A DNA stretch of 64,000 bases from Chitinophagaceae bacterium (lineage in GTDB: Bacteria; Bacteroidota; Bacteroidia; Chitinophagales; Chitinophagaceae): NCBI GenBank assembly GCA_044229375.1, contig JBGATE010000001.1:618-64617 (forward strand). Reading direction: 5' to 3'. Position numbers and translations under genes: made by a program. Positions 36,905 to 50,726 of the stretch are shown piece by piece; position 1 is the first letter of the stretch; each line of letters starts with the position of its first letter. The notes under the pieces were generated by a model. It saw only the letters and a program-made list of their open reading frames with translations, was not told the origin of the DNA and ran no database searches.

Positions 36905-37792
36905 TTACCCTTTTTGCGGCTCCAGTAATTTGAAAAACTGATCCAGTTGTGGAAGGATCACGATCCTCGTCCTGCGGTTAGAGGCTTTCCCCTCCTTAGT
37001 GGCATTATCCATTAACGGGTTGTACTCGCCCCTGCCGGCGGCGGCCATCTTGGCCGGATCCAGCCCGTATTGATTCTGCAGGATCCTCACCACCGATGTG
37101 GCCCTTTTAACGCTGAGGTCCCAGTTGTCCAGCAATACGCCTCCTTTGTAGGGAACATTGTCTGTATGTCCCTCCACCATGAACTCAATATCCGGCTGGT
37201 TCTTCAGCACCAGTGCCACTTTACCCAATACCGTCTTTGCCTTATCGGTCACATCATAGCTTCCGCTTTTAAAAAGCAGTTTATCCGAGATGTCTATATA
37301 TACCACCCCTTTCTCCACCTTAATATTGATGTCTTCGTCATCGAGGTTGCCGATCGCGCCTTTGAGGTTCATCACCAGCGCCATGTTGAGGGAGTCTTTC
37401 CTGGCCATTTGCTGCTGGAGGGTCTGGATATACGCATCCTTGGCGCCGATATTCTCCATTGATTTTTTTATGCTCTCCGCCTGGGCCGTTGTAATAACGG
37501 AAAGGTCTTCGAGTTGTTTTAAGGCCGCATTATGGTTGGCCTTCAGGTAATCCACCTGGTCGCCCAGTTCCTTCACCCGCACATTCAGTAATGCCTGTTC
37601 CCTTTCAAGTGCTTCTTTCTGACGGGAGAGCGTGGCTTTCTCCGTACTGCACTCTGACAGATCACCTTCCAGTGTTTTATACCGGGTTTCCAGTTTAGCA
37701 TAATCATCCTGCGCCGTTTTGAATTTTTTACTGCTTACGCAGGAACCAAGGGTAATAACTGCAAAAAGCAGCGCAAAGTAGTTCAGTCTCAT
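36905..37792 (-). CDS. OmpA/MotB-family lipoprotein with coiled coil
   Basis: Lipobox LGSC-VSSKKF; coiled coil; LLFKSGS, VEGHTDNVP, NWDLSVKRA, AAGRGEYNP, NRRTRI. Confidence 0.92.
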   Translation of the reverse strand: MRLNYFALLFAVITLGSCVSSKKFKTAQDDYAKLETRYKTLEGDLSECSTEKATLSRQKEALEREQALLNVRVKELGDQVDYLKANHNAALKQLEDLSVITTAQAESIKKSMENIGAKDAYIQTLQQQMARKDSLNMALVMNLKGAIGNLDDEDINIKVEKGVVYIDISDKLLFKSGSYDVTDKAKTVLGKVALVLKNQPDIEFMVEGHTDNVPYKGGVLLDNWDLSVKRATSVVRILQNQYGLDPAKMAAAGRGEYNPLMDNATKEGKASNRRTRIVILPQLDQFFKLLEPQKG

Positions 37793-37904
37793 GTTCCGTT
37801 TTTTTAATATGAAAAAATCTATTTGATACAGCGATCCCTGTTGGCAAATATATAACGGGCCGGACGGCAGATCTCTTAAGAAACATATAAATGGCAGTAA
37901 CGGG

Positions 37905-37930
37905 AATGGCCGGGAGAACCCCGGCCATTC
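37905..37930. terminator. Hairpin (probable terminator of the barrel/cytochrome operon)
   Basis: aatggccggg-agaac-cccggccatt. Confidence 0.5.
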
Positions 37931-37951
37931 ATTAACCATCAACCCCTTATA

Positions 37952-38905
37952 CTATTCTTTTTCTTTTTTCAGTGTCATTGTCCTGTTGATCGTAAAACCC
38001 AGTGCGAATTTGCCGTCCTTGATCGGACTGGTGTTGCGGGCAAAATGGTCGATATTGGAAGCATCGATCGTGTTGCCGATATAGAACTGGAACAGGTGGC
38101 CGCCCGTATTGATCTCCACGCCGAGCGATAAAAGATCCGGTGTAAAGTCGATGACTGAACCGCTCTTGTTGATCAGGTTTTTGTACATGTTCAGCTGGCG
38201 GGCATATTCCATTGTCAAGTTGAGTTTCGGAGTGGCTTTATACTTTGCTCCCATCCCAATCGAACCAACAAAATTGCTGTTATTGATTCCATAAGGAACA
38301 ATGTTGAAATAGACCAGGGTGGGGTTTAACTGCAGGGAGAACTTGTCCGAAAATTTCCGGGCGATCAGTATCTGGTGCATATAGGACCAACGGTTATTGG
38401 TAAACTCATTAGGTGATTTGATCCCCGTGTAAATATTCGCCAGCGAGATCCATCCCAGGCTTATGGGCATGCCGCCTTTCCCCGTTTGCTGCCGAAGAAT
38501 CCTGAACTTGGCCCAGCCTTCAAAAACCGCTCTGCCGGTTGCGGACACGCCCACATTGGCCCATTTTACCGGCGACACATCAAACGAAAGATAAGTCTGG
38601 GCGATTCCTGCATTCAAACCGAACAGGTGCGCCAGGTTTTGTTTGAACCGGTTGTTATCCCCTTTTGTGCCAAGATCCTTGTTCCAGAAATACCCGAAAT
38701 GGTGAGAGATCATGAACTGGATATTTCCGGGCGTAATGATCTCCACGCTGTGGTTGTTGATGATGCGGGTGGCATTGAACGTAGCGCGTACGAATTTTTT
38801 CTGCGGTACTTCCTTTTCCACCGTTTCGGTTGCTGTGGAATCCTGGGCAGCAGAGACAAACCAGAGGCAGCATCCCAGAATCAGTAATATTGAAAGCTTT
38901 TTCAT
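37952..38905 (-). CDS. DUF5777-like outer-membrane beta-barrel protein
   Basis: Signal peptide; F.ATRIIN.HSVE, F.ISH.FG, KFRILRQ, QILIARKFS..FSLQL.PT, EINTGGHLFQ, GFTINR. Confidence 0.85.
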   Translation of the reverse strand: MKKLSILLILGCCLWFVSAAQDSTATETVEKEVPQKKFVRATFNATRIINNHSVEIITPGNIQFMISHHFGYFWNKDLGTKGDNNRFKQNLAHLFGLNAGIAQTYLSFDVSPVKWANVGVSATGRAVFEGWAKFRILRQQTGKGGMPISLGWISLANIYTGIKSPNEFTNNRWSYMHQILIARKFSDKFSLQLNPTLVYFNIVPYGINNSNFVGSIGMGAKYKATPKLNLTMEYARQLNMYKNLINKSGSVIDFTPDLLSLGVEINTGGHLFQFYIGNTIDASNIDHFARNTSPIKDGKFALGFTINRTMTLKKEKE

Positions 38906-38936
38906 GTTGTGCGTTTTTGGTTTTTACAAATACAGA

Positions 38937-39557
38937 TCACTGGGGTTGACCCTGGGCAATCCATTCCTTAATAATATTAACCGTACAGGTGGTCAGGCTG
39001 ATGGGCCCACCTGGGTGACCCTGGCTCCCACCGCTGTTCATCATGGTAGTCAGCACAGTCTTTTTCTCCACCATTTTATTGTAATCAAGTGGTACCGCCA
39101 GTCCGCCATGGCAGGTCGCCCCTTTGCAGCTGGTATTGTAAATGGGAAGGATTTCATTTGTCCAGGTTTGTATGCCGGTAATCGTACACCCCGTTCCGTC
39201 ATCATTTCCGCCTTCGTCAATCCACCGCTTGATCAGATTCCTTTCACTTTGTGAAAAGAAGATCTCGCCGCCCCCGGGGTGTTCGCCACCGTTGGCCATC
39301 ACTCCCAGCGTGGTCTTGCGGGCCAGGATGGCATCATAATAAATGATATTGCGATACGGGTCGGAGACGAGTACCGCGCGGACGGCGAAGGGGGTATTAT
39401 GACAGCCGCAGGGGCCGGCCGTTACGATGGGGACCACTTCTTTCCGGAATGATACCTTGGGCAGGGCCAGGATATCTTCTTTATTCCTGTAGCAGGAGGA
39501 CAACATGTAAACCATCATGGAAGTGATTGCTGCTGCTAAGATGATTCTTTGTTTCAT
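38937..39557 (-). CDS. Di-domain c-type cytochrome lipoprotein with atypical heme motifs
   Basis: Lipobox LSSC; two repeats of [F/W..E..PI...C(X)nCH...HPGG...I..WI..G] with PCGCH and CKGATCH. Confidence 0.75.
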   Translation of the reverse strand: MKQRIILAAAITSMMVYMLSSCYRNKEDILALPKVSFRKEVVPIVTAGPCGCHNTPFAVRAVLVSDPYRNIIYYDAILARKTTLGVMANGGEHPGGGEIFFSQSERNLIKRWIDEGGNDDGTGCTITGIQTWTNEILPIYNTSCKGATCHGGLAVPLDYNKMVEKKTVLTTMMNSGGSQGHPGGPISLTTCTVNIIKEWIAQGQPQ

Positions 39558-39594
39558 AAAACGTTCGTTTTATTAAATGAGTTAATTATAATAA

Positions 39595-40785
39595 TTAAGG
39601 ACGCCTGATTATCGTTCCTGATTTTCTGTATTTGAAGATCCCGGCGTTGTTCTGTCCGTATTTCCAAACATCGGGAATATTGGGATCAGCAAAATACCAG
39701 GCCTTGATCAACGCGATTTCTGAAGGCAGCAGCCCTCCGTCGTCATACGCCATTCCTCCCTGGTGCGTAGAGTTGAAGACACCTGTGTAGGGATTGGCCG
39801 GCAGGAGGGTGGAGTCAACCCTTGAGGCCACCATACTGGCAATATTGAGGTTATTACCCCGCACATAATATTGTTTTAATGTAACGGGATCTGTATACTG
39901 AACGGATGTAACGCTTCGTTGTCCTTTTGGATACATAATATCCAGTAATATATCATCATAGGTTTGCAGCGGCCCTCTTGTACTGGAAGCGGAAACCGGT
40001 GTGGAGAATGTTTTATACGGGCGGAAACTTGCATTGGCCAGGGTATCCGAATAGAATTTGCGTACACTGTCCTTGTAGGCGTTCCAAACTGTATTTCTGA
40101 GCGTAACATTGGAAAGCTGGCAATAAACAGTTACCGAACCGGTGGGACTAGAATATACATATTGCGTGGTATCATTGGTGGTTAAGGTTCCCAATAATCC
40201 TTTCCGGGCCCAGGCGCCGGTGGCGGTGGCCTGGTTATGGCAGTTGGCCGAACCACAACCATTATTGATAATCCGGATTGCAGCGGGACGGAAATCCCGG
40301 AGATCCGGTCTTTCTTTCGCCCCGTTCAGGATCCAGTTGTAAATAATGGCTTTGTCGGTTGTGCCCATTTCAAAAGATGAGTTGACCGGGGGCATGGCAT
40401 TTTTAAAATCATTAGTAGTGATAAACTCCCACAATTTGCTGCCCTGGGGATTCCCGGGTGATATGTATTTCATGATCTCGGCGTAGGTATCGAACTTCGG
40501 ATTTACTCGGCCCCCGTGACAATTACCGGTGCCGCAATGTTCATGAATGATCGTTTGCACCCCCCTGAACCGGATGAGGTCGTTTACATCGGGGGTGGCA
40601 TCGGAAGGAGTCACGGTGTTACTCTCATAAAAAGAGGCATAGAGGGTGGAGTCGGGTCCCCCTGTATAAGACCTGTCCAGGTTTTGAATGAGGTCACCCT
40701 GTTTTCTGCACTGAAATAGCAGCGTCGTCAAAAAGAAAACTCCGGTAAAAATGGTGGCTGCCTGAATTACTGAACCTTTTTTCAT
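39595..40785 (-). CDS. c-type cytochrome lipoprotein (Planctomycete cytochrome c-like domains)
   Basis: Lipoprotein-like Cys (LFQC); CGTGNCHGG...PGNPQGSKL...MPP...IYNWILNGA; second motif CGSANCH...LIKAW. Confidence 0.78.
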   Translation of the reverse strand: MKKGSVIQAATIFTGVFFLTTLLFQCRKQGDLIQNLDRSYTGGPDSTLYASFYESNTVTPSDATPDVNDLIRFRGVQTIIHEHCGTGNCHGGRVNPKFDTYAEIMKYISPGNPQGSKLWEFITTNDFKNAMPPVNSSFEMGTTDKAIIYNWILNGAKERPDLRDFRPAAIRIINNGCGSANCHNQATATGAWARKGLLGTLTTNDTTQYVYSSPTGSVTVYCQLSNVTLRNTVWNAYKDSVRKFYSDTLANASFRPYKTFSTPVSASSTRGPLQTYDDILLDIMYPKGQRSVTSVQYTDPVTLKQYYVRGNNLNIASMVASRVDSTLLPANPYTGVFNSTHQGGMAYDDGGLLPSEIALIKAWYFADPNIPDVWKYGQNNAGIFKYRKSGTIIRRP

Positions 40786-40900
40786 AAAAAGCTAGTTTAA
40801 CTGAATGAATCTGTTATTATTAAAAATCCTACTCTAAAAAAGCATTGTCAAAAATATTAGGGAGTTTCTGACAGTATCATGACATGAATTTGATGCATAC

Positions 40901-40985
40901 ATGACTTTTGTCACTTACTTAACTAAAGTTAATCAAAACAACGTTTTCTGTGATATTTCTCACTTAAACCCTTGACCAGGGTCAT
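40901..40985. promoter_or_regulatory. Three CRP/FNR-like TGA-N6-TCA palindromes in the divergent promoter region
   Basis: atgacttttgtcac (40901), gtgatatttctcac (40950), ttgaccagggtcat (40972). Confidence 0.55.
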
Positions 40986-41054
40986 GGTAGTGTCAAAATT
41001 TCGGAAATAAGTTGCACCGCCTTTTCTTTAAATTTAAGAATTAAAAAATTATAT

Positions 41055-41276
41055 ATGGGAACAAACAACCACAAAAAAAACAACTCCAGGCGTAACTTTT
41101 TCTCCTCCCTAATTTCCGGTTCTGCGGAAAATAAAGGAGAAATGGTAAAAATGCTTACCCCTGAAGGTAAACTGGTGGAGGTCAGCAAAGCCATCCTGGA
41201 GGCCGCCTCCCAAAAGCAAAGATCCAGTAATAAAGAAATCTACGACTGGATGAACAACCCCTCCAAAAAAAAATGA
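41055..41276 (+). CDS. Small hypothetical protein with twin-Arg-like motif
   Basis: SRRNFF; VKMLTPEGKLVEV motif shared with both downstream Fe-S proteins. Confidence 0.75.
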   Translation: MGTNNHKKNNSRRNFFSSLISGSAENKGEMVKMLTPEGKLVEVSKAILEAASQKQRSSNKEIYDWMNNPSKKK

Positions 41277-41301
41277 ATAAAAACAGAATCAACTTATTTT
41301 C

Positions 41302-42285
41302 ATGAAACAAGTAGAACAAACCGATAGTGGCCGCCGCGATTTTTTAAAGACCGCTGATAAAGCAACCGTTGCCGCCACTGCAAGCGGACGCGACCTATGC
41401 TCCTGCTCCTCTAAACAGGCGGCCACCGCTGAAAAAGTGCGGCTGCTCTCCCCCGAAGGAGAGATCGTGGAAATCGACTCCGCCTACCTGAACCACCAGG
41501 AACATATGTCCATTTTATCCAAGCTGGAACAACGGCAGGGCATAGCCGGGAAAAAGTTCGTCATGGTGGTGGATCTTTCGCGATGCAAAAACGCCCGCAA
41601 ATGCGTCTCTGCCTGTCAGAAATGGCATTACCGACCGGAGGACAAGGAATGGCTGACCGTAAAACTGATGAAGGACAGTGAAAAAAGCGCCCCCTATTGG
41701 TTCCCGAAACAGTGTTTCCATTGCGATAATCCCCCCTGCGTAAAAGTGTGCCCGGTCAATGCCACTTTTAAGAGGCAGGACGGGTTGGTGCTGATCGATA
41801 ACGATCGTTGTATTGGTTGTAAGTTCTGTATGGCGGCCTGCCCCTATTCAACCCGGGTATTCAACTGGGATGAGCCCGAAGTACCGATGGATATCAGGGG
41901 CCTTGCTTATTCCGCCGAAACTGGCATCCCCGCCAAAGTGGGTACGGTGGAAAAATGCGATTTCTGTCCCGACCGCGCCCGCGAAGGCCTGCTTCCACCC
42001 TGCGTAGAAGCCTGCCCCAACGGTGTTTTCTATTTCGGTGACGAAAACGAAGATACCGTTTCGAACGGTGAGGAAACCGTCAGTTTCTCGCAACTGATCA
42101 GGGACAGGGCCGCATACCGCTTCCAGGAAGAACTGGGTACCAAGCCGAGAGTGTACTATCTCCCGCCCAAAGACCGCCAGTTCCCTGTTGAAAGAGGATA
42201 TGAAAATCTGGATTCGAATATAAAAGCACGGTTCAAGGATATTATGGAACCGGACACTAAAACCTCCGGATCGGCAAACCACTAA
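41302..42285 (+). CDS. 4Fe-4S dicluster protein, NrfC/PsrB/DsrO family (copy 1)
   Basis: GRRDFLK; CKNARKCVSAC, CFHCDNPPCVKVCP, CIGCKFCMAACPY, KCDFC...PPCVEACP; LGTKPRVYY. Confidence 0.92.
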   Translation: MKQVEQTDSGRRDFLKTADKATVAATASGRDLCSCSSKQAATAEKVRLLSPEGEIVEIDSAYLNHQEHMSILSKLEQRQGIAGKKFVMVVDLSRCKNARKCVSACQKWHYRPEDKEWLTVKLMKDSEKSAPYWFPKQCFHCDNPPCVKVCPVNATFKRQDGLVLIDNDRCIGCKFCMAACPYSTRVFNWDEPEVPMDIRGLAYSAETGIPAKVGTVEKCDFCPDRAREGLLPPCVEACPNGVFYFGDENEDTVSNGEETVSFSQLIRDRAAYRFQEELGTKPRVYYLPPKDRQFPVERGYENLDSNIKARFKDIMEPDTKTSGSANH

Positions 42286-42308
42286 ACATTCACTGATCAA
42301 TTATTATT

Positions 42309-43664
42309 ATGGAACTCAATAAATTTCAACAGGAATTATTCAACTACCAGAAGCCTGTTATCGAAAAATTCGGGCGGAGGGCCTGGGGGTGGACCATTTT
42401 CTATTTGCTGTGGATTGGTTTGGGGGGATATGCGCTTTATCTCCAGGTGGTAAAAGGACATGAAATAACCGGCATGCGGGATAACGTGGTCTGGGGACTT
42501 TATATTGCCAACTTCATCTTCTTTATCGGCATCAGTTATGCGGGCGCCGTCATTTCAGGCATTCTCCACATCCTGAAAGTGGAATGGAGAAAACCCATTA
42601 TCCGGATCGCGGAAATGATCACCGTTATTTCGACGATCATCGGCCCGGTATTCATTTTATTATGTGTTGGAAGACTGGACCGGCTCCATCACCTGTTTCT
42701 CTATCCCCGGCTACAGTCACCCATCACCTGGGATGTGCTGGCCATCGGTACCTATTTTACCGGAAGCGTCATCTTTCTGTACCTCGCCCTGATCAAAGAC
42801 TTTGCCATTTACCGCGATGCCAAACTGAATATTCCAAAATGGAAACAAAAGATGTATAAGATCCTGGCGCTGGGATACAAGGGAACTCACGGTCAGAAAA
42901 GGCATATCAATATTTCCATGAACCTGATGGCTATCATGATCGTTCCGCTGGCTATCATCGTGCACTCTGTTCTTTCCTGGATATTCGGCATGACCTTGCG
43001 GCCCGGCTGGCACAGTACGATCTTCGGACCCTATTTCGTATTAGCAGCCATTTATTCCGGTACAGGTGTGCTGATTGTCTCCATGTGGGTATACAGGAAA
43101 ATGTATAAACTGCACAATTACCTGGAGGATAAACACTTTGTTTACCTGGGTTATATCATGATGATACTGGGAGCGGCGTACGGGTATTTTACTTTTTCAG
43201 AATACCTTACCAGCTGGTATGGTTCTGAAAAATGGGACAGCGAAGTGATCGCAAAAATGTTTAACCCGTCTGAATACGGATGGCAGTTCCTGTTTGCCAA
43301 TGTTGCCGGAATCCTCTTACCAATTTTGATCGTCGCCATTCCAAAGACCCGGACACCTAATCTTATCACCATTGCATCCTTCCTGATGGTCATTGCGCTG
43401 TGGGTAAAACGATACCTGATCATAGTACCGACCCTGGAATCTCCGCTATTGCCCATGCAGGATACAAGACCCGAATTTGTAAAATATTCTGCTACCTGGG
43501 TGGAATGGGCGCTGACGCTTGCCGGCATTGCCACTTTCTTTCTCTTCTTTACCCTGATGTCGAAGTTTGTGACCATCATACCCATCTCTGAGTTCGGTGA
43601 AAAAGGGAAGGCCGCTGCCCCGGCCAAAGAAGCAACAACTGGAAAAGAAACAGCAACCGCATAA
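42309..43664 (+). CDS. NrfD/PsrC-family quinol-interacting membrane protein (copy 1)
   Basis: WGLYIANFIFFIGIS, RIAE, GR.DR, QSPITWD, VHSV..WIF, RPGWHS, KRYLIIVP; about 10 TM. Confidence 0.92.
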   Translation: MELNKFQQELFNYQKPVIEKFGRRAWGWTIFYLLWIGLGGYALYLQVVKGHEITGMRDNVVWGLYIANFIFFIGISYAGAVISGILHILKVEWRKPIIRIAEMITVISTIIGPVFILLCVGRLDRLHHLFLYPRLQSPITWDVLAIGTYFTGSVIFLYLALIKDFAIYRDAKLNIPKWKQKMYKILALGYKGTHGQKRHINISMNLMAIMIVPLAIIVHSVLSWIFGMTLRPGWHSTIFGPYFVLAAIYSGTGVLIVSMWVYRKMYKLHNYLEDKHFVYLGYIMMILGAAYGYFTFSEYLTSWYGSEKWDSEVIAKMFNPSEYGWQFLFANVAGILLPILIVAIPKTRTPNLITIASFLMVIALWVKRYLIIVPTLESPLLPMQDTRPEFVKYSATWVEWALTLAGIATFFLFFTLMSKFVTIIPISEFGEKGKAAAPAKEATTGKETATA

Positions 43665-43674
43665 AAAAAAACTT

Positions 43675-44637
43675 ATGAAACAGGTTTCAATATTACCCCT
43701 GGTACAATACTTCCGGCAATTTGTTTTGCCCCTCTGCCTGCTGTTCGTTTTGTCGCTACCTGTCCGCCTGATCGCTCAGGACGACAGCACAGCACAAAAG
43801 GAAGGACCGGCTGCTGCGACAGAAACGGAAATGATCTCTCCGGCCATTACTTTCACCGCCGTGCAGAAAAGTGATATGAGTATTGAACTGAAGGCAGCGC
43901 TACAGGCCAAAGTGAAGGGCCAGTTTGTAAAGTTGTACAAGATGAAGGTCAGCTTTTACCGGGTGGTGAATGAGGAAGCACAGGAGCTGGGGTTTGCGAT
44001 CACTGACGGTAACGGCAAAGCCACCTTCCAGGTAAAAGGCGACAGCCTCCTGGTAGATAAAGAGGGCAACCTTCAATTCAAGGCGGCCTTTGCTGGCAAT
44101 AAAGCCATGGAGGCAGCCGAAGAGGTGGTGAGTTTCAAGAGGGCCCGGCTGGAGATCACGCCGGTCAAAGAAGATTCATTGCTGAGCGTACAGGTAAAAC
44201 TGGTTGATTTAGGAACAGGTCAGGAGGTTCCGGTAAAAGATGCAACAGTCGGCATATTTGTGAAGCGCATGTTTCTGCCGCTGAAAGTGGGTGAAGGCAC
44301 TACCGATGAGGCCGGTACCGCTGCGATCGAGTTTCCGCAACATTTGCCCGGTGATGCCAAAGGAAACCTGACATTGATCGGCCGACTGGATGAAAACGAG
44401 GTATATGGCAACCTGGAGGCTACAAGCGTTCAACAATGGGGTGTTCCGGTTTCTGATAAAATCGAGGAACTGCCCCGTGCCCTGTGGAGCACGAACCCAC
44501 CGATCTGGATGATGGTCACTTTCGTTATTCTGATGGGTACCGTCTGGGGTCACTACCTGGTTATTATCATCCAGTTGTTCCGCTTAAGAAAAGAAGAACC
44601 CTCACCAGGTTCTCCTACGATAGAACATCTCTCTTAA
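43675..44637 (+). CDS. Hypothetical periplasmic beta-sandwich protein with C-terminal TM anchor (copy 1)
   Basis: Signal peptide; LPGDAKGNLTLIGRLDENEVYG; WGV; RALWSTNPP then TM; paralogous to 46996-47931. Confidence 0.85.
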   Translation: MKQVSILPLVQYFRQFVLPLCLLFVLSLPVRLIAQDDSTAQKEGPAAATETEMISPAITFTAVQKSDMSIELKAALQAKVKGQFVKLYKMKVSFYRVVNEEAQELGFAITDGNGKATFQVKGDSLLVDKEGNLQFKAAFAGNKAMEAAEEVVSFKRARLEITPVKEDSLLSVQVKLVDLGTGQEVPVKDATVGIFVKRMFLPLKVGEGTTDEAGTAAIEFPQHLPGDAKGNLTLIGRLDENEVYGNLEATSVQQWGVPVSDKIEELPRALWSTNPPIWMMVTFVILMGTVWGHYLVIIIQLFRLRKEEPSPGSPTIEHLS

Positions 44638-44652
44638 CCTAAATACGGGGTT

Positions 44653-45597
44653 ATGGAAGAAGATAATAACAAACAAGACTTCAAAACCGACCGTAAAGAG
44701 TTCCTTAAAAAAGGGTTGGTTGCCGGAAGCGTCATCGCTGCAGGCGCAGTCGGACTGAATAATCTCACTTCCTGCGGAAATGACTCCGGAGAAAAAGTTA
44801 AAGTACTGACCCCCGAAGGAAAACTGGTGGAAGTGGATTCGGGTCAGTTGAAAAAATCCAGGGCCTGCTGTGCCGCTCCCACTAAAGAAGCCCGGGTTGG
44901 GGTTCCCGGAAAAAAATATGTGATGGTGATCGATCTTTCCCGCTGCAAGCATGCGCTTAAGTGCCAGGATGCCTGCCAGGAATATCATCATCTTTCCGGC
45001 ATGAATGTCTGGTTGAAGGTGTTCAAGATGCATGATGCTGAAAATACGGCCCCTTACTGGATGCCCAAACCCTGCCTGCATTGTGATAAACCTCCCTGCG
45101 TAAAAGTATGCCCGGTCAATGCCACTTACAAAAGAGATGACGGAATCGTTCTGGTAGATAATGAACGTTGCATCGGCTGCAGGTTCTGTATGGCGGCATG
45201 TCCTTATTCCACGAGATCATTTAATTGGGAAGAACCGGAACTTATATCGGAAACCGAAGGTTCGGTTTACTCACCTGAAACGGGATTCCCACAAAAAAAG
45301 GGTACCGTGGAAAAATGTGATTTCTGCCCCGATATGCTGCGCCAGGGAAAACTTCCTCACTGTGTAACTGCCTGTCCCAACGGAGTATTCTACATGGGCG
45401 ACCTGAATGAAGATACCGTTTCCAATGGCGCCGAAACGGTCCGTTTCAGCCAGCTTATAAAGGATAAAGGCGGGTACCGTCTAAACGAAATACTGGGTAC
45501 AGAACCCAGTGTATACTATCTGCCTCCCGTAAACAGGTTATTTCCGTTTATCGATCCGGAAAAAGAAACAAAAGAACCGGATGACGCTGCAAATTGA
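44653..45597 (+). CDS. 4Fe-4S dicluster protein, NrfC/PsrB/DsrO family (copy 2)
   Basis: DRKEFLKKGLVAGSVIAAGAVG..LTSC (Tat-like signal with lipobox); CKHALKCQDAC plus three canonical Cys groups. Confidence 0.92.
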   Translation: MEEDNNKQDFKTDRKEFLKKGLVAGSVIAAGAVGLNNLTSCGNDSGEKVKVLTPEGKLVEVDSGQLKKSRACCAAPTKEARVGVPGKKYVMVIDLSRCKHALKCQDACQEYHHLSGMNVWLKVFKMHDAENTAPYWMPKPCLHCDKPPCVKVCPVNATYKRDDGIVLVDNERCIGCRFCMAACPYSTRSFNWEEPELISETEGSVYSPETGFPQKKGTVEKCDFCPDMLRQGKLPHCVTACPNGVFYMGDLNEDTVSNGAETVRFSQLIKDKGGYRLNEILGTEPSVYYLPPVNRLFPFIDPEKETKEPDDAAN

Positions 45598-45623
45598 TTC
45601 CGGAGAAGGTTAAATACCTTGCT

Positions 45624-46994
45624 ATGGAAGAGAATAAACCACAAATAGAAGAAGCTGCAGCAATAAAAATGCTGCACCAGTATAACGAAGACCTTCTTCC
45701 CAAAAAATTCGGATTGATCGGCAAGTCCTGGGTGGCCCTGCTGTTGGTTGTTCTTCTGCTGGGCATTTACTGTTATATCATTCAACTCAGGAAAGGACTG
45801 ATCATAACCGGGATGAGGGATTTTGTATTCTGGGGAATCTACATTTCCAATTTTGTTTTTTTTGTTGCGATCAGCCTGGTGGGATCATTAATAACCGCCG
45901 TGCTATACCTGCTCAAGGTTTCCTGGCGGGCTCCGCTCACCCGGCTTTCGGAGGTTATTGCCGTTGCTGCCATTCTATTTGCCGGGTTAATTATCATCGT
46001 CGACATGGGGCGGCCCGACCGGATGATGAATATGGTTCTTCATGGAAGAATACAGTCTCCGATCATCTGGGATGTGATGGTGGTCATGACCTACATGACG
46101 CTGAGTATACTGCTGCTTTATTTTCCGCTATTGCCCGGCATCTCCTTTTGCAGGGATCACCTGAAAGGAATACCCAAATGGCAGAAAAAAATGTATACGA
46201 TCCTTTCTCTAGGCTGGAAGAATACCCCGGAGCAATATAAAGTGGTCAAGAAAGCCATTACCATTCTGTCGGTCATGATCATTCCGGTTGCGCTTTGCAT
46301 CCACACCGTAACCTCCTGGTTGTTCGCGAGTACATACCGGCCGGGATGGGACAGCACCAATTTTGGGGCCTATTTTGTTTCCGGTGCCTTCCTGGTAGGC
46401 TCGGGCGGTGTCGTTGTGGGAATGTACCTGCTGAGAAGGTTTAACCCTTCATATGACAAGTACCTCACCGACACACACTTTGACAGAATGGGTAAGCTGC
46501 TGGTGTTGCTTGCCATGATCTATGCATATTTCTCCATCAACGAATATCTTATTCCCGCTTATAAAATGAAAGGGGAGGAAGCGCATCACCTTAACGAATT
46601 GTTCACGGGTTTTTATGCCCCTATGTTCTGGTCCGTACAGTTTTTCGGGATGATCCTTCCCATCATCGTACTCCTTTTCAAAAGGGGGCGGCGGCCGCTT
46701 TCCATGTTCATTATGGCCGTGCTGGTGATCGTATGCGCCTGGTTCAAGCGATACCTGATCGTTATTCCAAGCATGTCTTTCCTGCCGGTACAGGAGATCC
46801 CCGAAGCATGGAAACATTACTCACCCACCTTACTGGAATGGGCCATAACAGGCGGTTCGCTGGCGGGCGCATTACTGGTCATCACATTTTTTATCCGTTA
46901 TTTTCCCATCATATCCGTTTGGGAGGTTGCTGAAGAGAAAGGCGTTTCCACCGAAGTCATTTATAAACATCTGCACGAAGGAAATGAAAAATGA
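45624..46994 (+). CDS. NrfD/PsrC-family membrane protein (copy 2)
   Basis: WGIYISNFVFFVAIS, RLSE, DMGRPDR, QSPIIWD, IHTVTSWLF, RPGWDS, KRYLIVIP (alternative TTG start at 45594). Confidence 0.92.
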   Translation: MEENKPQIEEAAAIKMLHQYNEDLLPKKFGLIGKSWVALLLVVLLLGIYCYIIQLRKGLIITGMRDFVFWGIYISNFVFFVAISLVGSLITAVLYLLKVSWRAPLTRLSEVIAVAAILFAGLIIIVDMGRPDRMMNMVLHGRIQSPIIWDVMVVMTYMTLSILLLYFPLLPGISFCRDHLKGIPKWQKKMYTILSLGWKNTPEQYKVVKKAITILSVMIIPVALCIHTVTSWLFASTYRPGWDSTNFGAYFVSGAFLVGSGGVVVGMYLLRRFNPSYDKYLTDTHFDRMGKLLVLLAMIYAYFSINEYLIPAYKMKGEEAHHLNELFTGFYAPMFWSVQFFGMILPIIVLLFKRGRRPLSMFIMAVLVIVCAWFKRYLIVIPSMSFLPVQEIPEAWKHYSPTLLEWAITGGSLAGALLVITFFIRYFPIISVWEVAEEKGVSTEVIYKHLHEGNEK

Positions 46995-46995
46995 A

Positions 46996-47931
46996 ATGAT
47001 CCATATTACAAAAAGAGCAGGGTGGCACAGCGCCTTTTTCATTTTAATAATCATCGGCGCTATCTCCCTGCTTCCAGGGTCTGCAACGGCACAGGATACA
47101 AAAGACAGTTCCAAACTTTCTTTCACGATGAACCTGAGTTCAGTTGTAACAGATGGCAAGCGAACGGTGAAAGTGCAGCTCAGCAGGAAGGCCAATAAAA
47201 AAACGGTGGTCGTCCGTGACCTGAAATCCCCGTTAAATCTTTATTTGAATGAAGTAAAAGCGCAGGATCCGGCGGATGGAACCGGCTGGATAAGCCAACT
47301 TCACACGGGATACGAGGGAGAAGGGTTGTTTGAATTCCCCGCTGGTTTTAACGGATTGACATCCGGGCTGCATCATTATACCTTCATTGTGAAAATGGAA
47401 GCCGATCCGTTGTACGAAGAAACGGAAGAACAAATCACCGTGTCGGATGCAAAAATCAATATTGTGTACTCAGGAGAGGATTCCATTAAAACAGCAACGG
47501 CAACAGTGACCGCCTGGAATGACAGCAGCCAGAGTTATGTTATTGTACCCAATACCGAACTGAAACTTTGCCTTAAAAGAACCTTTAACTGCCTGCCTTT
47601 CGGAGAACCGGGGGCCATGACCAATGAAGCCGGGGAAATCTCCGGTGAACTACCGCTTGATCTGCCCGGGAATACTGATGGAACCCTTACCATTGCCGCC
47701 AGGCTGGAAGAGGATGAAAACTACGGTACGGTGGAAGCAACCACCCGGGTGCCGTGGGGGGTGCGTCCCAGGGAAAACCCTGTCCGTGGACGCACTTTAT
47801 GGTCTTCCGGGGAAAATGCGCCCCTGGTACTGGTTATCTCCTCCGTGGCCATCATCGGTATTATTTGGGGTACTATCCTATACCTGGTGTATTTATTATT
47901 TAAAATAAAAAGACTGGGCAAAACCCCATAA
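46996..47931 (+). CDS. Hypothetical periplasmic beta-sandwich protein with C-terminal TM anchor (copy 2)
   Basis: Signal peptide; LPGNTDGTLTIAARLEEDENYG; WGV; RTLWSSGENAP then TM (alternative start at 46984). Confidence 0.85.
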   Translation: MIHITKRAGWHSAFFILIIIGAISLLPGSATAQDTKDSSKLSFTMNLSSVVTDGKRTVKVQLSRKANKKTVVVRDLKSPLNLYLNEVKAQDPADGTGWISQLHTGYEGEGLFEFPAGFNGLTSGLHHYTFIVKMEADPLYEETEEQITVSDAKINIVYSGEDSIKTATATVTAWNDSSQSYVIVPNTELKLCLKRTFNCLPFGEPGAMTNEAGEISGELPLDLPGNTDGTLTIAARLEEDENYGTVEATTRVPWGVRPRENPVRGRTLWSSGENAPLVLVISSVAIIGIIWGTILYLVYLLFKIKRLGKTP

Positions 47932-48121
47932 AGGAAAAACAACTGAAAATTGTATGCTTTTTATAGTCGTTGAATACATTATAACCTGATTTTTTCCATA
48001 TGATTGAAGTCGGAAAATGCAGGTATTTTGATCAGGCCGAAATATGAGAAAATTCATGTTCTACGGCTTGCAACTATTTCGTAATTTGAGCATTCTATTA
48101 TATACGTAAAAACATTAAAAC

Positions 48122-48526
48122 ATGAAAAAGAACGCTTCCATACTCCTAGCTGGTTTAATTGCGATTGTCGGGATGGCCTTCGTTCCAAAATCAACCCTTC
48201 AGAATCCCTGGCCTGTCCCGGATGCCTATAAAAACAAAGTAAACCCATTAAAGGGTGATGCCGCTTCCGTTGCTACGGGAAAAACATTGTATACCCAGCA
48301 TTGCAAATCCTGCCATGGAACAAAAGGAAAAGGAGACGGTCCCAAAGCTTCACAGTTGGATACTGAATGCGGAGATTTTACAAAAGCTGCTTTCCAGTCC
48401 CAGACCGACGGGGCTATTTATTACAAAACAGAAAAAGGCCGGAAAGATATGCCCTCCTATAAGACAAAGATCCCCGATCCAAATGATTTGTGGGCCGTTG
48501 TGAATTACCTGAGAACATTGAAATAA
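48122..48526 (+). CDS. Monoheme class I cytochrome c
   Basis: Signal peptide; NP, G..LY..HCKSCHG..GKGDGP, TDGAIYYK, MP axial Met, W.VVNYLRTL. Confidence 0.93.
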   Translation: MKKNASILLAGLIAIVGMAFVPKSTLQNPWPVPDAYKNKVNPLKGDAASVATGKTLYTQHCKSCHGTKGKGDGPKASQLDTECGDFTKAAFQSQTDGAIYYKTEKGRKDMPSYKTKIPDPNDLWAVVNYLRTLK

Positions 48527-48548: not shown

Positions 48549-48579
48549 AAACAGGGCTGTCTTTCAGCCCTGTTTTTTT
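48549..48579 (+). terminator. Intrinsic terminator
   Basis: aaacagggctg-tcttt-cagccctgttttttt. Confidence 0.85.
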
Positions 48580-48985: not shown

Positions 48986-49062
48986 ACCTGTAATACGTTC
49001 GTGATGCCGGTTAGTTCGCAAACTGGTAAAATGCTTTACTTTGTGGCACTTATTTGTTTTCT

Positions 49063-49791
49063 ATGGGCAAAGATGAAGTTTTCCGGGAAGAGATCGAAAA
49101 GGCCAGCGACTTTAAGTTTGGCGCCAACGTGGCCAGGGTTTTTGACGATATGGTGAACCGTTCGGTTCCCTTCTACGGTGAGATACAGCGTATGATGGCC
49201 GAACTGGCCGCCAACCATGCCGCCGAAGGCAGCTTTGTATATGATCTCGGCTGCTCCACCGGCACCACCATGATCGGGATGGATACGATGGTGGAAAAGC
49301 CAATCAAGTTCATCGGGGTGGATGACTCGCAGCAAATGCTGGACAAATGCAAATCCAAACTGATGGAAGTGGGTTTCTCCCGCCCCTATGAGCTCCGCTG
49401 CGCAGACCTGGCAAAAGAATTGAAGATCGAGAATGCCTCCGTGGTAGTGCTCTGCCTCACGCTCCAGTTCGTGCGACCCATTTACCGGGAGCAGGTATTG
49501 AAAAACATTTTCGCGGGACTTAACCCCGGCGGCGTGCTGATACTAGTGGAAAAGATACTCGCCGAAGAAAGCAATTTCAACCGGGACTTTATCAAGTACT
49601 ACTACAATTACAAACGCCGCAATCAGTACAGCGAAATGGAGATCTCCCAGAAAAGAGAGGCGCTGGAGAACGTACTGGTTCCCTATAAGCTAAGTGAGAA
49701 TATCAGCCTGCTGAGGGATGTGGGGTTTGAGCATTGCGAGGTGTTTTTTAAATGGTACAATTTTGCGGGGCTGGTGGCTACGAAAAAGTAA
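49063..49791 (+). CDS. cmoA: Carboxy-S-adenosyl-L-methionine synthase CmoA-like
   Basis: F.F...VA.VFDDMV.RSVPFY, YDLGCSTG, TLQFV, EISQKREALENVL, KWYNFAG. Confidence 0.82.
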   Translation: MGKDEVFREEIEKASDFKFGANVARVFDDMVNRSVPFYGEIQRMMAELAANHAAEGSFVYDLGCSTGTTMIGMDTMVEKPIKFIGVDDSQQMLDKCKSKLMEVGFSRPYELRCADLAKELKIENASVVVLCLTLQFVRPIYREQVLKNIFAGLNPGGVLILVEKILAEESNFNRDFIKYYYNYKRRNQYSEMEISQKREALENVLVPYKLSENISLLRDVGFEHCEVFFKWYNFAGLVATKK

Positions 49792-49805
49792 CTTTTAAAA
49801 GTTCG

Positions 49806-49983
49806 AAGAAACAAGATACAAGAACCAAATAAATCACAATTCAAAAAAATTTCAATATTCAAAAAAGTTCAACGAAACAGTGATGAATTTTTAATTTTTC
49901 AGTTGGAGCTTTTTGGGGTTTTGTGATGTGATCATTGAAGCTTATTTGTTTCTTGTATCTTGTTTCTTGTATCTTGTTTCTTG
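49806..49983. repeat. Heptamer-built inverted-repeat element
   Basis: aagaaacaagatacaagaaccaaataa pairs with ttatttgtttcttgtatcttgtttctt (1 mismatch), followed by further tcttgtW units. Confidence 0.7.
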
Positions 49984-50003
49984 GAGTTTATTCCCCCGAA
50001 TTT

Positions 50004-50726
50004 ATGGTAAGCATTGGCAATTTCTTCTTCAAGTACCGCAACTGGATCTTCATCCTCTTCTACGCCGCCCTGTTCATTCCCTCGTGGCCCCTGTTTTCTC
50101 CGTCAAAGTTTGGAAACACCTATTATATCTGGCCCATCGCCATTGGATTATTCGTCACTTGTCTCGGCCAGTTAATCCGGGGCCTGACGATCGGGTTAGC
50201 GTATATCGTAAGGGGTGGCAAAGAGGGAAAACCTTACGCGGAAGGACTGGTAACAGAAGGGATCTTTCGTCATTGCCGCAACCCGCTCTATGTTGGCAAT
50301 ATCCTGATGCTCCTGGGAGTGGGAATACTGGCCAATTCGCTGGTCTATGTAGCGATCGTAATCCCCGTTTTCCTGTTCATCTACCAGGCCATCGTGCTGG
50401 CCGAAGAGAATTTCCTGCGTGGAAAATTCGGCGCCGGTTTTGACGCCTATTGCAAAAACGTGAACCGCTGGTGGCCCGGCCTGCGCGGGATCGGGAAGAC
50501 CTTTGGAAGCATGGAATTCAACTGGAAGCGGTGGATACTGAAAGAACATACCACCCAGTTCATCTGGCTCTGCGGTATCGTGCTCATACTGCTGCTCAAC
50601 TACCCTCATCTCAGCGGGTATGATAGAGACCGGCGAAATTTACTGCTGGGGATCATCCTCGGGATTCTTTTACTGGTTTACATCCTTATCCGTTACCTGA
50701 AGACGACGGGGAAATTCAGGGAATAG
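50004..50726 (+). CDS. Isoprenylcysteine carboxylmethyltransferase (ICMT/PEMT) family membrane protein
   Basis: LVTEGIFRHCRNPLYVGN, EENFLRGKFG..F..YC..V.RW. Confidence 0.9.
   Translation: MVSIGNFFFKYRNWIFILFYAALFIPSWPLFSPSKFGNTYYIWPIAIGLFVTCLGQLIRGLTIGLAYIVRGGKEGKPYAEGLVTEGIFRHCRNPLYVGNILMLLGVGILANSLVYVAIVIPVFLFIYQAIVLAEENFLRGKFGAGFDAYCKNVNRWWPGLRGIGKTFGSMEFNWKRWILKEHTTQFIWLCGIVLILLLNYPHLSGYDRDRRNLLLGIILGILLLVYILIRYLKTTGKFRE

Follow-up and report, generated by a model that had tools for sequence, protein, structure and literature searches.

A divergently transcribed gene cluster in a 64,000-nucleotide stretch of a Chitinophagaceae genome (contig JBGATE010000001.1, positions 618 to 64,617; hereafter the window) may encode an accessory respiratory branch, in which electrons would pass from menaquinol through an inner-membrane module of an iron-sulfur (Fe-S) protein, an NrfD-type membrane protein and an immunoglobulin (Ig)-like subunit to a monohaem cytochrome c, and on through PSCyt1-type lipoproteins and a DUF5777 outer-membrane barrel to an acceptor in the envelope or outside the cell. 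Judged from the sequences, we put this reading at about an even chance. It is carried by the gene content of the two arms, by their persistence side by side in relatives, and by conserved operator-like sites in the region between them. The initial annotation had called the locus a coherent redox unit without a canonical catalytic subunit, with two lipoproteins and a DUF5777-like barrel on the minus strand and a small twin-arginine open reading frame (ORF), two consecutive triplets of Fe-S protein, NrfD protein and anchored periplasmic protein, a monohaem cytochrome c and a terminator on the plus strand. The ORF listing and our scans of the window ORFs with Pfam and NCBIfam models bear out this description, and the same scans found no catalytic partner for the NrfCD-type triplets within the window.

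The window belongs to a metagenome-assembled genome (MAG) of 3.1 Mb in 332 contigs that is 74% complete, and near-identical DNA was found in sludge, wastewater and bioreactor metagenomes from 11 studies. On the minus strand, a 396-amino-acid lipoprotein with two PSCyt1-like domains and a C-terminal domain (39595-40785) is followed by a 206-amino-acid lipoprotein with the lipobox SSC, C-Xn-CH motifs in two PSCyt1-like domains and no Pfam match (38937-39557), and then by the barrel (37952-38905), whose match to DUF5777 (PF19089) has an E value of 8.5e-58 and scores 195.9 bits against a cut-off of 23.1. The plus arm opens with s73, a small twin-arginine protein (SRRNFF; 41055-41276). It continues with the type-1 triplet, made up of FeS1, a four-cluster ferredoxin-like subunit with a twin-arginine translocation (Tat) signal, SGRRDFLK (41302-42285; Fer4_11, 1.6e-24), NrfD1, an ActC-like integral membrane subunit with about 10 transmembrane helices (42309-43664), and X1, a bitopic Ig-like subunit (43675-44637). 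The type-2 triplet follows with FeS2, a four-cluster subunit whose Tat motif, DRKEFLK, is degenerate (44653-45597; Fer4_11, 1.2e-21), the ActC-like NrfD2 (45624-46994), and X2 (46984-47931), a paralogue of X1 (blastp, 28% identity, E 1.5e-23). The last gene encodes c134, a class I monohaem cytochrome c (CKSCH) with a signal or anchor helix (48122-48526; Pfam Cytochrom_C, 1.1e-13), and the arm ends in an intrinsic terminator with an 11-bp stem, 6 GC pairs and a T run (48549-48575, annotated as far as 48585). Three of these starts needed a choice: X1 most likely begins at ATG 43675, which is residue 27 of its ORF, is nearly invariant in our alignment A2 of X proteins and is where the Atlas record begins, while orthologue lengths place the starts of NrfD2 and X2 probably at 45624 and about 46984, in ORFs that themselves open at TTG 45594 and TTG 46927. 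For gene orders we write F, N and X for the Fe-S, NrfD and Ig-like subunits, c for c134, B for the barrel, s for s73, L and l for the 396- and 206-amino-acid lipoproteins, and p for a lipoprotein of about 130 amino acids found in relatives; MH432 and MH341 are multihaem cytochrome genes, and cytb a cytochrome b gene, of related loci.

To place the locus among its relatives, an NrfD alignment was scanned against species-representative genomes. This gave at least 593 related stretches, and the best 80 loci were used for ORF clustering. The 80 are labelled Bacteroidota almost throughout, with carriers that include Chitinophagaceae/Ferruginibacter, Saprospiraceae, Cyclobacteriaceae, Bacteroidales, Prolixibacteraceae, Lentimicrobiaceae and the isolate Lutibacter aestuarii. 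N is present in all 80, F in 78, X in 68, c in 65, B in 49 and p in 36; a Crp/Fnr-family regulator gene occurs in 25, a 7-haem cytochrome and a PhsC-like cytochrome b in 23 each, a 5-6-haem lipoprotein in 22, s73 in 18 (directly 5' of F), L in 14 and l in 12. In a flank-controlled set of 42 loci with at least 6 kb of upstream sequence, 35 contain X and 7 do not. The barrel gene is found in 33 of the 35, with p or l directly beside it in 31, and a c134-type cytochrome is likewise present in 33. None of the 7 loci without X has B, and as these fall mostly in one subclade they represent few independent events.

The arrangement of these genes varies widely. Bacteroidales loci read Crp, MH432, p, B, c, MH341, cytb, F, N, X on one strand, and Lutibacter aestuarii CCUG 60022 (locus L111) has MH432, p, B, F, N, X, c. 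Some Chitinophagaceae show EB_dh, p, B, s, F, N, X, c, and others YceI, p, B, a 172-amino-acid ORF, U32, MMPL, s, F, N, X, c. In the window the layout is divergent, with B, l and L on the minus strand facing s, F, N, X and c on the plus strand. The tandem double triplet recurs in four loci (L032, L034, L036 and L060), and the L-l-B arm is faced by type 1 alone in L020 and L021 and by type 2 alone in L023. The initial annotation had made its proposal depend on the co-conservation of the arms, and this is what the relatives display. Because the association persists through rearrangements, with the arms divergent or on one strand and in several orders, it is good evidence from comparative sequence that the two arms are functionally linked. 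Within the host genus, X was detected in 14 of 24 species, and it also occurs in three other families of the order (40 relatives). The 13 neighbourhoods that we fetched usually hold a single unit, either s73-FeS1-NrfD1-X1-c (type 1) or FeS2-NrfD2-X2-c (type 2), nearly always with a DUF5777 gene nearby. In an even draw of 200 high-quality Bacteroidota species, X gave a match in only 4, one of them weak, so the system is accessory and patchy. One related locus (L090, SACF01000001.1) is labelled Alphaproteobacteria bacterium and carries a typical Bacteroidales-type locus whose NrfD nests among those of Bacteroidales; it is probably a mis-binned or mislabelled MAG.

The two arms are separated by a divergent regulatory region of 269 bp (40786-41054). 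An alignment of 19 orthologous regions, taken downstream of the L start codon, revealed conservation islands in otherwise diverged DNA, and these coincide with four palindromic boxes built on TGAC/GTCA half-sites: TGACAGTATCATGACA (40869-40884), CATGACTTTTGTCACT (40900-40915), TGTGATATTTCTCACT (40949-40964), which is like the CRP site TGTGA-N6-TCACA, and TTGACCAGGGTCATGG (40972-40987). The boxes lie at matching distances in about 10 of 16 loci. Closer to L, the sequence TCAAAAATA (40848-40856) is a candidate -7 element for the minus arm, its reverse complement being TATTTTTGA, which we take to resemble the Bacteroidota -7 box. The exact box-2 pattern occurs once in the 3.1-Mb assembly. Exact-pattern matches elsewhere in the assembly were few and mostly inside genes, and for this reason we draw no regulon. 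A Crp/Fnr-family regulator gene adjoins the locus in Bacteroidales relatives. As the conserved boxes sit in the shared intergenic region, they support common control of both arms, and we do not assign individual boxes to one arm or the other; to describe such operator-like boxes here is new. A weak hint that both arms are expressed came from one activated-sludge RNA library, in which four small contigs matched the locus at 95% identity or more (three at 99% or more) with a depth of about 2-5. These contigs cover the L/l junction, the edge of the intergenic region, NrfD1 and the end of X2; DNA carry-over is possible, and they are not evidence of an operon.

At the centre of each triplet is a protein that belongs to the NrfD family (PF03916; 111 bits for NrfD1 and 113 for NrfD2, cut-off 25.8). 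The two are 37% identical to each other and 29% (NrfD1) and 28% (NrfD2) identical to the ActC of the same genome. By sequence, the only solved relatives of NrfD1 and NrfD2 are ActC chains of alternative complex III (ACIII), which align over the full length at 151-186 bits (186 for NrfD1 with 6F0K_C, 170 for NrfD2 with 6BTM_C); ActF chains match NrfD1 weakly and NrfD2 not at all, and neither protein matched the PsrC structure in this search of solved-structure sequences. Quinone-site positions were taken from Table 2 of Calisto and Pereira (PMC8076601). Of 97 family members, 94-97 retain the counterparts of the quinone-site residues Ser164 and Asp169 of ActC and of its gate residue Arg395; in NrfD1 these are Ser137, Asp142 and Arg368. 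At the ActC His139 position type 1 has Cys (78 sequences; Cys119 in NrfD1) and type 2 has Asp (12 sequences), and the family has Ile or Leu for Asp253 and Lys or Asn for Glu394. Since Ser, Asp and Arg are retained where the host ActF has Lys, Lys and Phe, both NrfD1 and NrfD2 look quinone-competent, and neither has the features of a quinone-blind, ActF-like second subunit.

A maximum-likelihood tree of 104 NrfD sequences (IQ-TREE quick search, LG+G4), with ActC, ActF and the E. coli proteins NrfD, HybB and DmsC as references, separates type 1 (84 rows, SH-aLRT 100) and type 2 (11 rows, SH-aLRT 98), each as a clade, from an ActC clade formed by the host protein and two others (100) and from an ActF clade (100), with no resolved deep branching order. 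Among these references, NrfD1 and NrfD2 are thus members of neither the ActC nor the ActF clade; for the comparison with DsrP and QrcD, NCBIfam scores stand in. The assembly holds three NrfD-family genes, two in the window and the third, ActC, on contig C166, where a complete ActABCDEF operon is followed by caa3 oxidase genes. We therefore reject the idea that the locus is a fragment of ACIII with missing subunits elsewhere. The initial annotation had named such a dispersed complex as one finding that would undo its proposal; because the host ACIII is complete with its own ActC and ActF, that objection falls away, within the limits of the incomplete assembly. Its suggestion that the two NrfD paralogues pair as ActC and ActF do is not supported and was rejected, as most relatives have one triplet, of type 1 or type 2, and both paralogues retain the Ser, Asp and Arg of the quinone site. 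A periplasmic molybdoenzyme partner was also sought throughout the assembly (74% complete), and the sole PF00384 match was a cytoplasmic NAD-type formate dehydrogenase, whose gene adjoins those for FdhD and formate-tetrahydrofolate ligase.

The Fe-S proteins, 59% identical to each other, have Fer4_11 scores of 86 and 77 bits and carry RR and RK Tat motifs, and each triplet thus pairs an NrfD protein with a Tat-exported partner with four Cys groups, as in the dimeric NrfCD/PsrBC modules. They are 314-327 amino acids long against 1061 for ActB, with which they align at 25% identity and only over its C-terminal part (residues 771-1020, approximately). We aligned the cysteines of 82 family members with those of E. 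coli NrfC, DmsB and HybA and the host ActB. The family retains 15 of the 16 canonical cluster Cys, and the second Cys of group I is replaced by Ala in 79 of 82, FeS1 and FeS2 included. In the host ActB it is the second Cys of group III that is replaced, by Thr, and there the family keeps Cys, so that the cluster change typical of ACIII is not seen here. In PsrB- and DmsB-type proteins group I ligates the cluster farthest from the membrane. Because one cluster Cys is absent, a single [3Fe-4S] cluster is predicted from the alignment, and since group I is membrane-distal it would sit at the end where electrons leave or enter, unlike in ACIII, where it lies next to the quinone site. This contrast with ActB in cluster ligands, group I against group III, is new.

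The small protein s73 is restricted to type-1 units and gave no Pfam or NCBIfam match. It is a conserved protein of 70-80 amino acids with a short, weak hydrophobic region, no Cys, and His only at position 6. It carries the segment VKMLTPEGKLVEV, which is also found near the N-termini of both Fe-S proteins (41302-41480 and 44653-44850) with the shared pattern V(K/R)(M/L)LTP(E/D)GKLVE(V/I). It could be Tat-related, a docking peptide or a small subunit.

The third member of each triplet has no family match in Pfam or elsewhere and no cofactor motif. In the AlphaFold model of X1 (pLDDT 88), two Ig-like beta-sandwiches lie between an N-terminal signal or anchor helix and a C-terminal transmembrane helix; Foldseek returned generic Ig-like matches only (TM-scores 0.2-0.3), and these give no functional lead. 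The X gene is always immediately 3' of the NrfD gene, and in alignment A2, which includes X2, conservation peaks at the juxtamembrane segment and the transmembrane helix. This pattern is in keeping with X as a probable structural or docking subunit whose helix packs against NrfD. By blastp it is unrelated to any Act subunit. The cytochrome c134, by Pfam and NCBIfam comparison, resembles oxidase-donor cytochromes and is 32% identical to the host ActE (E 8e-10).

Taken by its parts, F-N-X-c appears to parallel ActB (C-terminal part)-ActC-?-ActE and so to form a minimal ACIII-like unit. The likeness to solved ACIII (6F0K, 6BTM, 6LOD and 8K9E) lies in the ActC-type NrfD of about 10 transmembrane helices that keeps Ser164, Asp169 and Arg395, in a Tat-exported four-cluster partner lacking one cluster Cys, and in the ActE-like c134. 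Unlike ACIII, the locus has no pentahaem ActA, no molybdopterin-like N-terminal half of ActB, no ActD and no ActF; its missing Cys is in group I and not III, and its NrfD proteins differ from ActC at His139 (Cys or Asp), Asp253 (Ile or Leu) and Glu394 (Lys or Asn). These proteins form clades of their own, X has no Act relative, and the host has a complete ACIII besides. The DsrOP, QrcCD and NhcBC modules offer a second comparison, since the best NCBIfam models are DsrO for both Fe-S proteins, followed by TtrB and QrcC, and DsrP for both NrfD proteins, and type-2 NrfD shares with DsrP and QrcD the Asp at the quinone-site position of transmembrane helix 2. The scores, however, stay below the cut-offs: 186 bits each against 200 for DsrO, 88 and 131 against 350 for DsrP (on which the host ActC scores 50), 122 and 133 against 400 for QrcC, and 51 and 56 against 570 for QrcD. 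In addition, the locus has no QrcAB and no NhcA, and DsrM-, DsrK- and DsrJ-like genes are absent from it, the search for these three having covered the locus and not the whole genome. Geobacter CbcBA-type complexes are inner-membrane quinol oxidoreductases, and Bacteroidales relatives of the locus resemble them in having, directly 5' of F-N-X, genes for a membrane-anchored cytochrome with 7 haems and for a cytochrome b like PhsC (177 bits, cut-off 204); both genes are absent from the window, where the Chitinophagaceae form consists of F-N-X alone and is duplicated. In the NrfD-family reviews and other papers that we searched by keyword, nothing was found on the present NrfD group, and its division into type-1 and type-2 clades is also new.

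The AlphaFold model of the barrel has 12 strands (pLDDT 85.6, pTM 0.80), so the Pfam score is matched by a predicted beta-barrel fold. Foldseek gave low TM-scores only. An exhaustive structural comparison placed the model closest to 12-stranded KdgM (Z 17.7, root-mean-square deviation 2.0 over 166 residues), with FapF, NanC, a COG4313 channel and autotransporter beta-domains among the other matches. A full-text literature search for DUF5777 returned no paper, and the predicted KdgM/NanC-like fold is a new assignment for this family. In an alignment of 56 barrel sequences (mean column identity 28%), H68, F70, H270 and F272 do not vary. The two His-x-Phe motifs that they form are predicted to lie on the apolar faces of strands 1 and 11, and K133, Q139 and G262 are invariant and E264 nearly so; together these residues might form a cofactor site or an active site. 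Three DUF5777 proteins (P0001-P0003, including one from Panacibacter ginsenosidivorans) reach 591-615 amino acids, roughly double the normal length, and look like tandem double barrels.

The MtrCAB systems and other porin-cytochrome conduits (PCC) use wide porins, 26 strands in MtrB, and Cyc2 is a fused cytochrome-porin of about 16-18 strands. With these the locus has in common a barrel gene kept beside genes for haem lipoproteins and a quinol module, and relatives have, in front of p-B, a gene for a lipoprotein with 5-6 haems and a collagen-like linker. It differs from Mtr and PCC in its 12-strand barrel, against at least 20, in having no surface decahaem partner and no visible sequence relationship, and in the absence of any multihaem protein from the window, and from Cyc2 in that cytochrome and barrel are encoded by separate genes, with no fusion among the homologues listed. 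A 12-stranded barrel is too small to sheathe a cytochrome as Mtr porins do, and the porin-cytochrome-like route that the initial annotation had raised is not supported in its Mtr form.

The same annotation had called both lipoproteins cytochromes. They are of a PSCyt1-like type, but neither L nor l contains CXXCH, so that haem binding is inferred from homology. L has CX4CH twice (CGTGNCH at residue 84 and CGSANCH at residue 177), and l has CXCH (CGCH at residue 50) and CX4CH (CKGATCH at residue 144). The spacing is well kept, (4,4) in 14 of 14 L proteins and (1,4) in 11 of 12 l proteins. Each of the 38 members of the p family has one C-Xn-CH at the same place, with n = 2 in 20, n = 4 in 17 and n = 1 in 1. 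By hhalign, p is homologous to domain 1 of both lipoproteins, with probabilities of 98.2% (E 3.5e-14) for L and 98.4% (E 1e-14) for l, and most of the longer proteins found with the p profile have PSCyt1 and cytochrome c domains in Pfam. The Atlas clusters nearest to L carry PSCyt1 and Cytochrome_CBB3, and its C-terminal domain of about 200 amino acids is conserved with no recognised fold. The Cys...Cys-His residues are invariant while their spacing varies by lineage, which argues for, but does not prove, a retained haem site in L, l and p; these spacing statistics are new. The gene before the small haem lipoprotein and the barrel varies and always encodes a lipoprotein, either a 5-6-haem form with a collagen-like linker, an EB_dh/DOMON protein, a YceI-like protein or L, and this pattern of variable heads is new as well. 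Multihaem lipoproteins with collagen-like linkers, DOMON/EB_dh and YceI proteins are typical surface electron-transfer proteins. The export signal of Bacteroidetes lipoproteins is C-X-K-(D/E)2-X (PMC5080379). EB_dh and YceI lipoproteins have a C-x-K-D-D-like sequence after the lipid Cys, and it is weaker in p, l, L and the multihaem form.

In the respiratory branch that we propose, each triplet would act in the inner membrane as a minimal relative of ACIII. The ActC-like 10-helix NrfD would exchange electrons and protons with menaquinol/menaquinone at a P-side site, the Tat-exported four-cluster protein would wire that site to the periplasm, and X, without a cofactor, would serve in docking or structure against NrfD. 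The ActE-like c134 would be the likely periplasmic carrier, and at the outer membrane L and l, with four PSCyt1-type C-Xn-CH sites in total, would work with the DUF5777 barrel. The most likely direction is from quinol to the envelope, with reduction of some extracellular or envelope acceptor. The two triplets would be old paralogues that act in parallel and not as a heterodimer; because the quinone-site position differs, Cys in one and Asp in the other, they are possibly tuned to different conditions.

Several observations weigh against this branch as a whole. The main gap lies in how electrons would cross the outer membrane, since a barrel of 12 strands is too narrow to enclose a cytochrome in the manner of MtrB and is not known to contain a cofactor. 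The spacings CX4CH and CXCH are uncommon for haem attachment, and PSCyt1 (PF07635) support is marginal for the first domain of L (23.1 bits, cut-off 22) and absent for l. A fusion of the p haem domain with the barrel was not found among the 120 best DUF5777 homologues or 51 longer p-domain proteins, which is a weak negative. DUF5777 genes also occur away from cytochromes in the host genome, which has three further copies (C36:1-5000, C309:78-1544 and C302:2-691). A subclade (L065-L071, L085, L089 and L091) has a Crp gene facing F, N and c, then a gene for a DUF2339 membrane protein, with neither X nor barrel, so the inner-membrane module can work without the barrel. Finally, the direction of flow cannot be read from sequence. 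Of the extra DUF5777 genes, one is directly 3' of a YceI-like gene and three genes from a dihaem cytochrome c peroxidase-like gene, another adjoins a gene for a Bcp-type peroxiredoxin, and the last is cut by a contig end.

The same components could run in reverse, with the lipoproteins taking electrons from a donor outside the cell or in the periplasm, for example Fe(II), reduced humics or a reduced sulfur compound, and passing them through c134 to a terminal oxidase, and with F-N-X as a Qrc-like cytochrome c:menaquinone oxidoreductase. We consider this unlikely. QrcCD, a relative built on the same module, is a quinone reductase (PMC6303296 and PMC13059093), the Fe-S proteins score best on the DsrO and QrcC models, type-2 NrfD has its Asp at transmembrane helix 2 as in DsrP, QrcD and HybB, and c134 is akin to oxidase-donor cytochromes; yet quinone reduction would be uphill from a high-potential class I cytochrome c, the hosts look heterotrophic, and the Bacteroidales versions adjoin quinol-oxidase-like modules and a regulator of the FNR/CRP type. 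Much the same low likelihood attaches to functionally separate arms, with F-N-X-c as a second quinol:cytochrome c oxidoreductase that feeds oxidases and the barrel and lipoproteins as mere neighbours. Units of F-N-c without X or B do exist in the subclade described above, c134 is ActE-like, the genome is aerobic with a caa3 oxidase, and DUF5777 occurs in other contexts. Separate arms fit poorly with the presence of B in 33 of 35 X loci, kept through rearrangements in several orders and often within one operon, with the operator-like sites in the shared promoter region, and with a genome that already has a full ACIII.

A different role for the outer-membrane part, which we rate as quite unlikely, is that the barrel is a KdgM/NanC-like solute channel that lets soluble substrates, for example peroxide or some other oxidant, chelated metal or a compound resembling a quinone, reach periplasmic haem lipoproteins, which would then form a quinol-dependent reductase or detoxifying enzyme with no electron transfer across the outer membrane. 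The best structural matches of the barrel are indeed monomeric 12-stranded solute channels, other host DUF5777 genes have a gene for a dihaem cytochrome c peroxidase-like protein or for a Bcp peroxiredoxin in their neighbourhood, the conserved C-terminal domain of L (about 200 amino acids) could be catalytic, and the good export signal C-x-K-D-D is found only in the EB_dh and YceI partners and is weaker in p, l and L (PMC5080379). Nevertheless, the Pfam and NCBIfam scans showed no catalytic family, peroxidases included, in these lipoproteins or in p, and L is replaced in relatives by collagen-linker multihaem lipoproteins, DOMON/EB_dh and YceI. Very unlikely, finally, is that the C-Xn-CH lipoproteins of Chitinophagaceae are not cytochromes, CX4CH and CXCH being a metal or disulfide site in a non-redox arm. 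The missing CXXCH in L and l and the lack of a Pfam match for l would fit, as would the failure to find a dedicated haem lyase for CX4CH in this incomplete assembly, where only two partial Cytochrom_C_asm matches, both at contig ends, were seen. The Cys...Cys-His triad is nonetheless invariant across 38 p, 12 l and 14 L proteins with lineage-dependent spacing, and the arm stays linked to cytochrome c and the quinol module.

Electron transfer from the quinol pool to the envelope remains the reading that we prefer, and it can be carried further, with tentative and rather doubtful standing, to a model in which the DUF5777 barrel and a PSCyt1-type lipoprotein form a minimal outer-membrane electron gate with interchangeable lipoprotein heads, fed from the quinone pool by the ACIII-like module and serving a phylum-specific extracellular electron exchange. 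The gate might work by threading a Pro-rich lipoprotein linker through the 12-stranded barrel, or the two invariant His-x-Phe motifs of the barrel might hold a cofactor. Its heads would be multihaem c, DOMON haem b, a YceI domain, which may bind quinone, or the two-domain PSCyt1 protein of the window. Such a gate would be unrelated to Mtr, PCC and Cyc2, would be present both in aerobic sludge and freshwater Chitinophagaceae and in anaerobic Bacteroidales, and would add a new architecture to the very short list of trans-outer-membrane electron conduits.

Bacteroidota are dominant heterotrophs of sludge, sediments, soils and guts, and to our knowledge no envelope electron-transfer route is known for them. 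The locus joins an outer-membrane pair that has no described counterpart to a minimal ACIII-like quinol module. Should electrons indeed pass to or from the cell surface by this route, the attribution of iron, humic and manganese redox cycling and of electroactivity in wastewater and sediments would change. Read conservatively, the locus still provides two new subfamilies of the NrfCD module, a diagnostic change in cluster ligands and a new obligate subunit, X.

Genes around the locus deserve a brief mention. An OmpA-family protein of 345 amino acids with a coiled coil and an OmpA C-terminal domain (36905-37942, minus strand; Pfam OmpA, 5.1e-21) is encoded beyond the barrel, and its gene begins 9 bp past the barrel gene, with which it is possibly co-transcribed. 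Its orthologue in relatives occupies other positions near the locus, in one arrangement convergent with the gene for cytochrome c, and it is outside the conserved unit. Just 3' of the locus, at 49054-50726 on the plus strand, are genes for a UbiE/COQ5-like methyltransferase and a PEMT/ICMT-like membrane methyltransferase. This pair (clusters 15 and 14) keeps its position in about 9-10 Chitinophagaceae loci; the enzymes may modify a quinone or a lipid, or the pair may reflect plain family synteny. In four relatives (L019:3115-7311, L041, L042 and L057), genes for a U32-family protein and an MMPL/RND transporter are inserted between YceI-p-B and s73-F-N-X-c. We take the U32 family to comprise oxygen-independent hydroxylases such as UbiU and UbiV, and the insertion hints at a link with an isoprenoid or quinone lipid.

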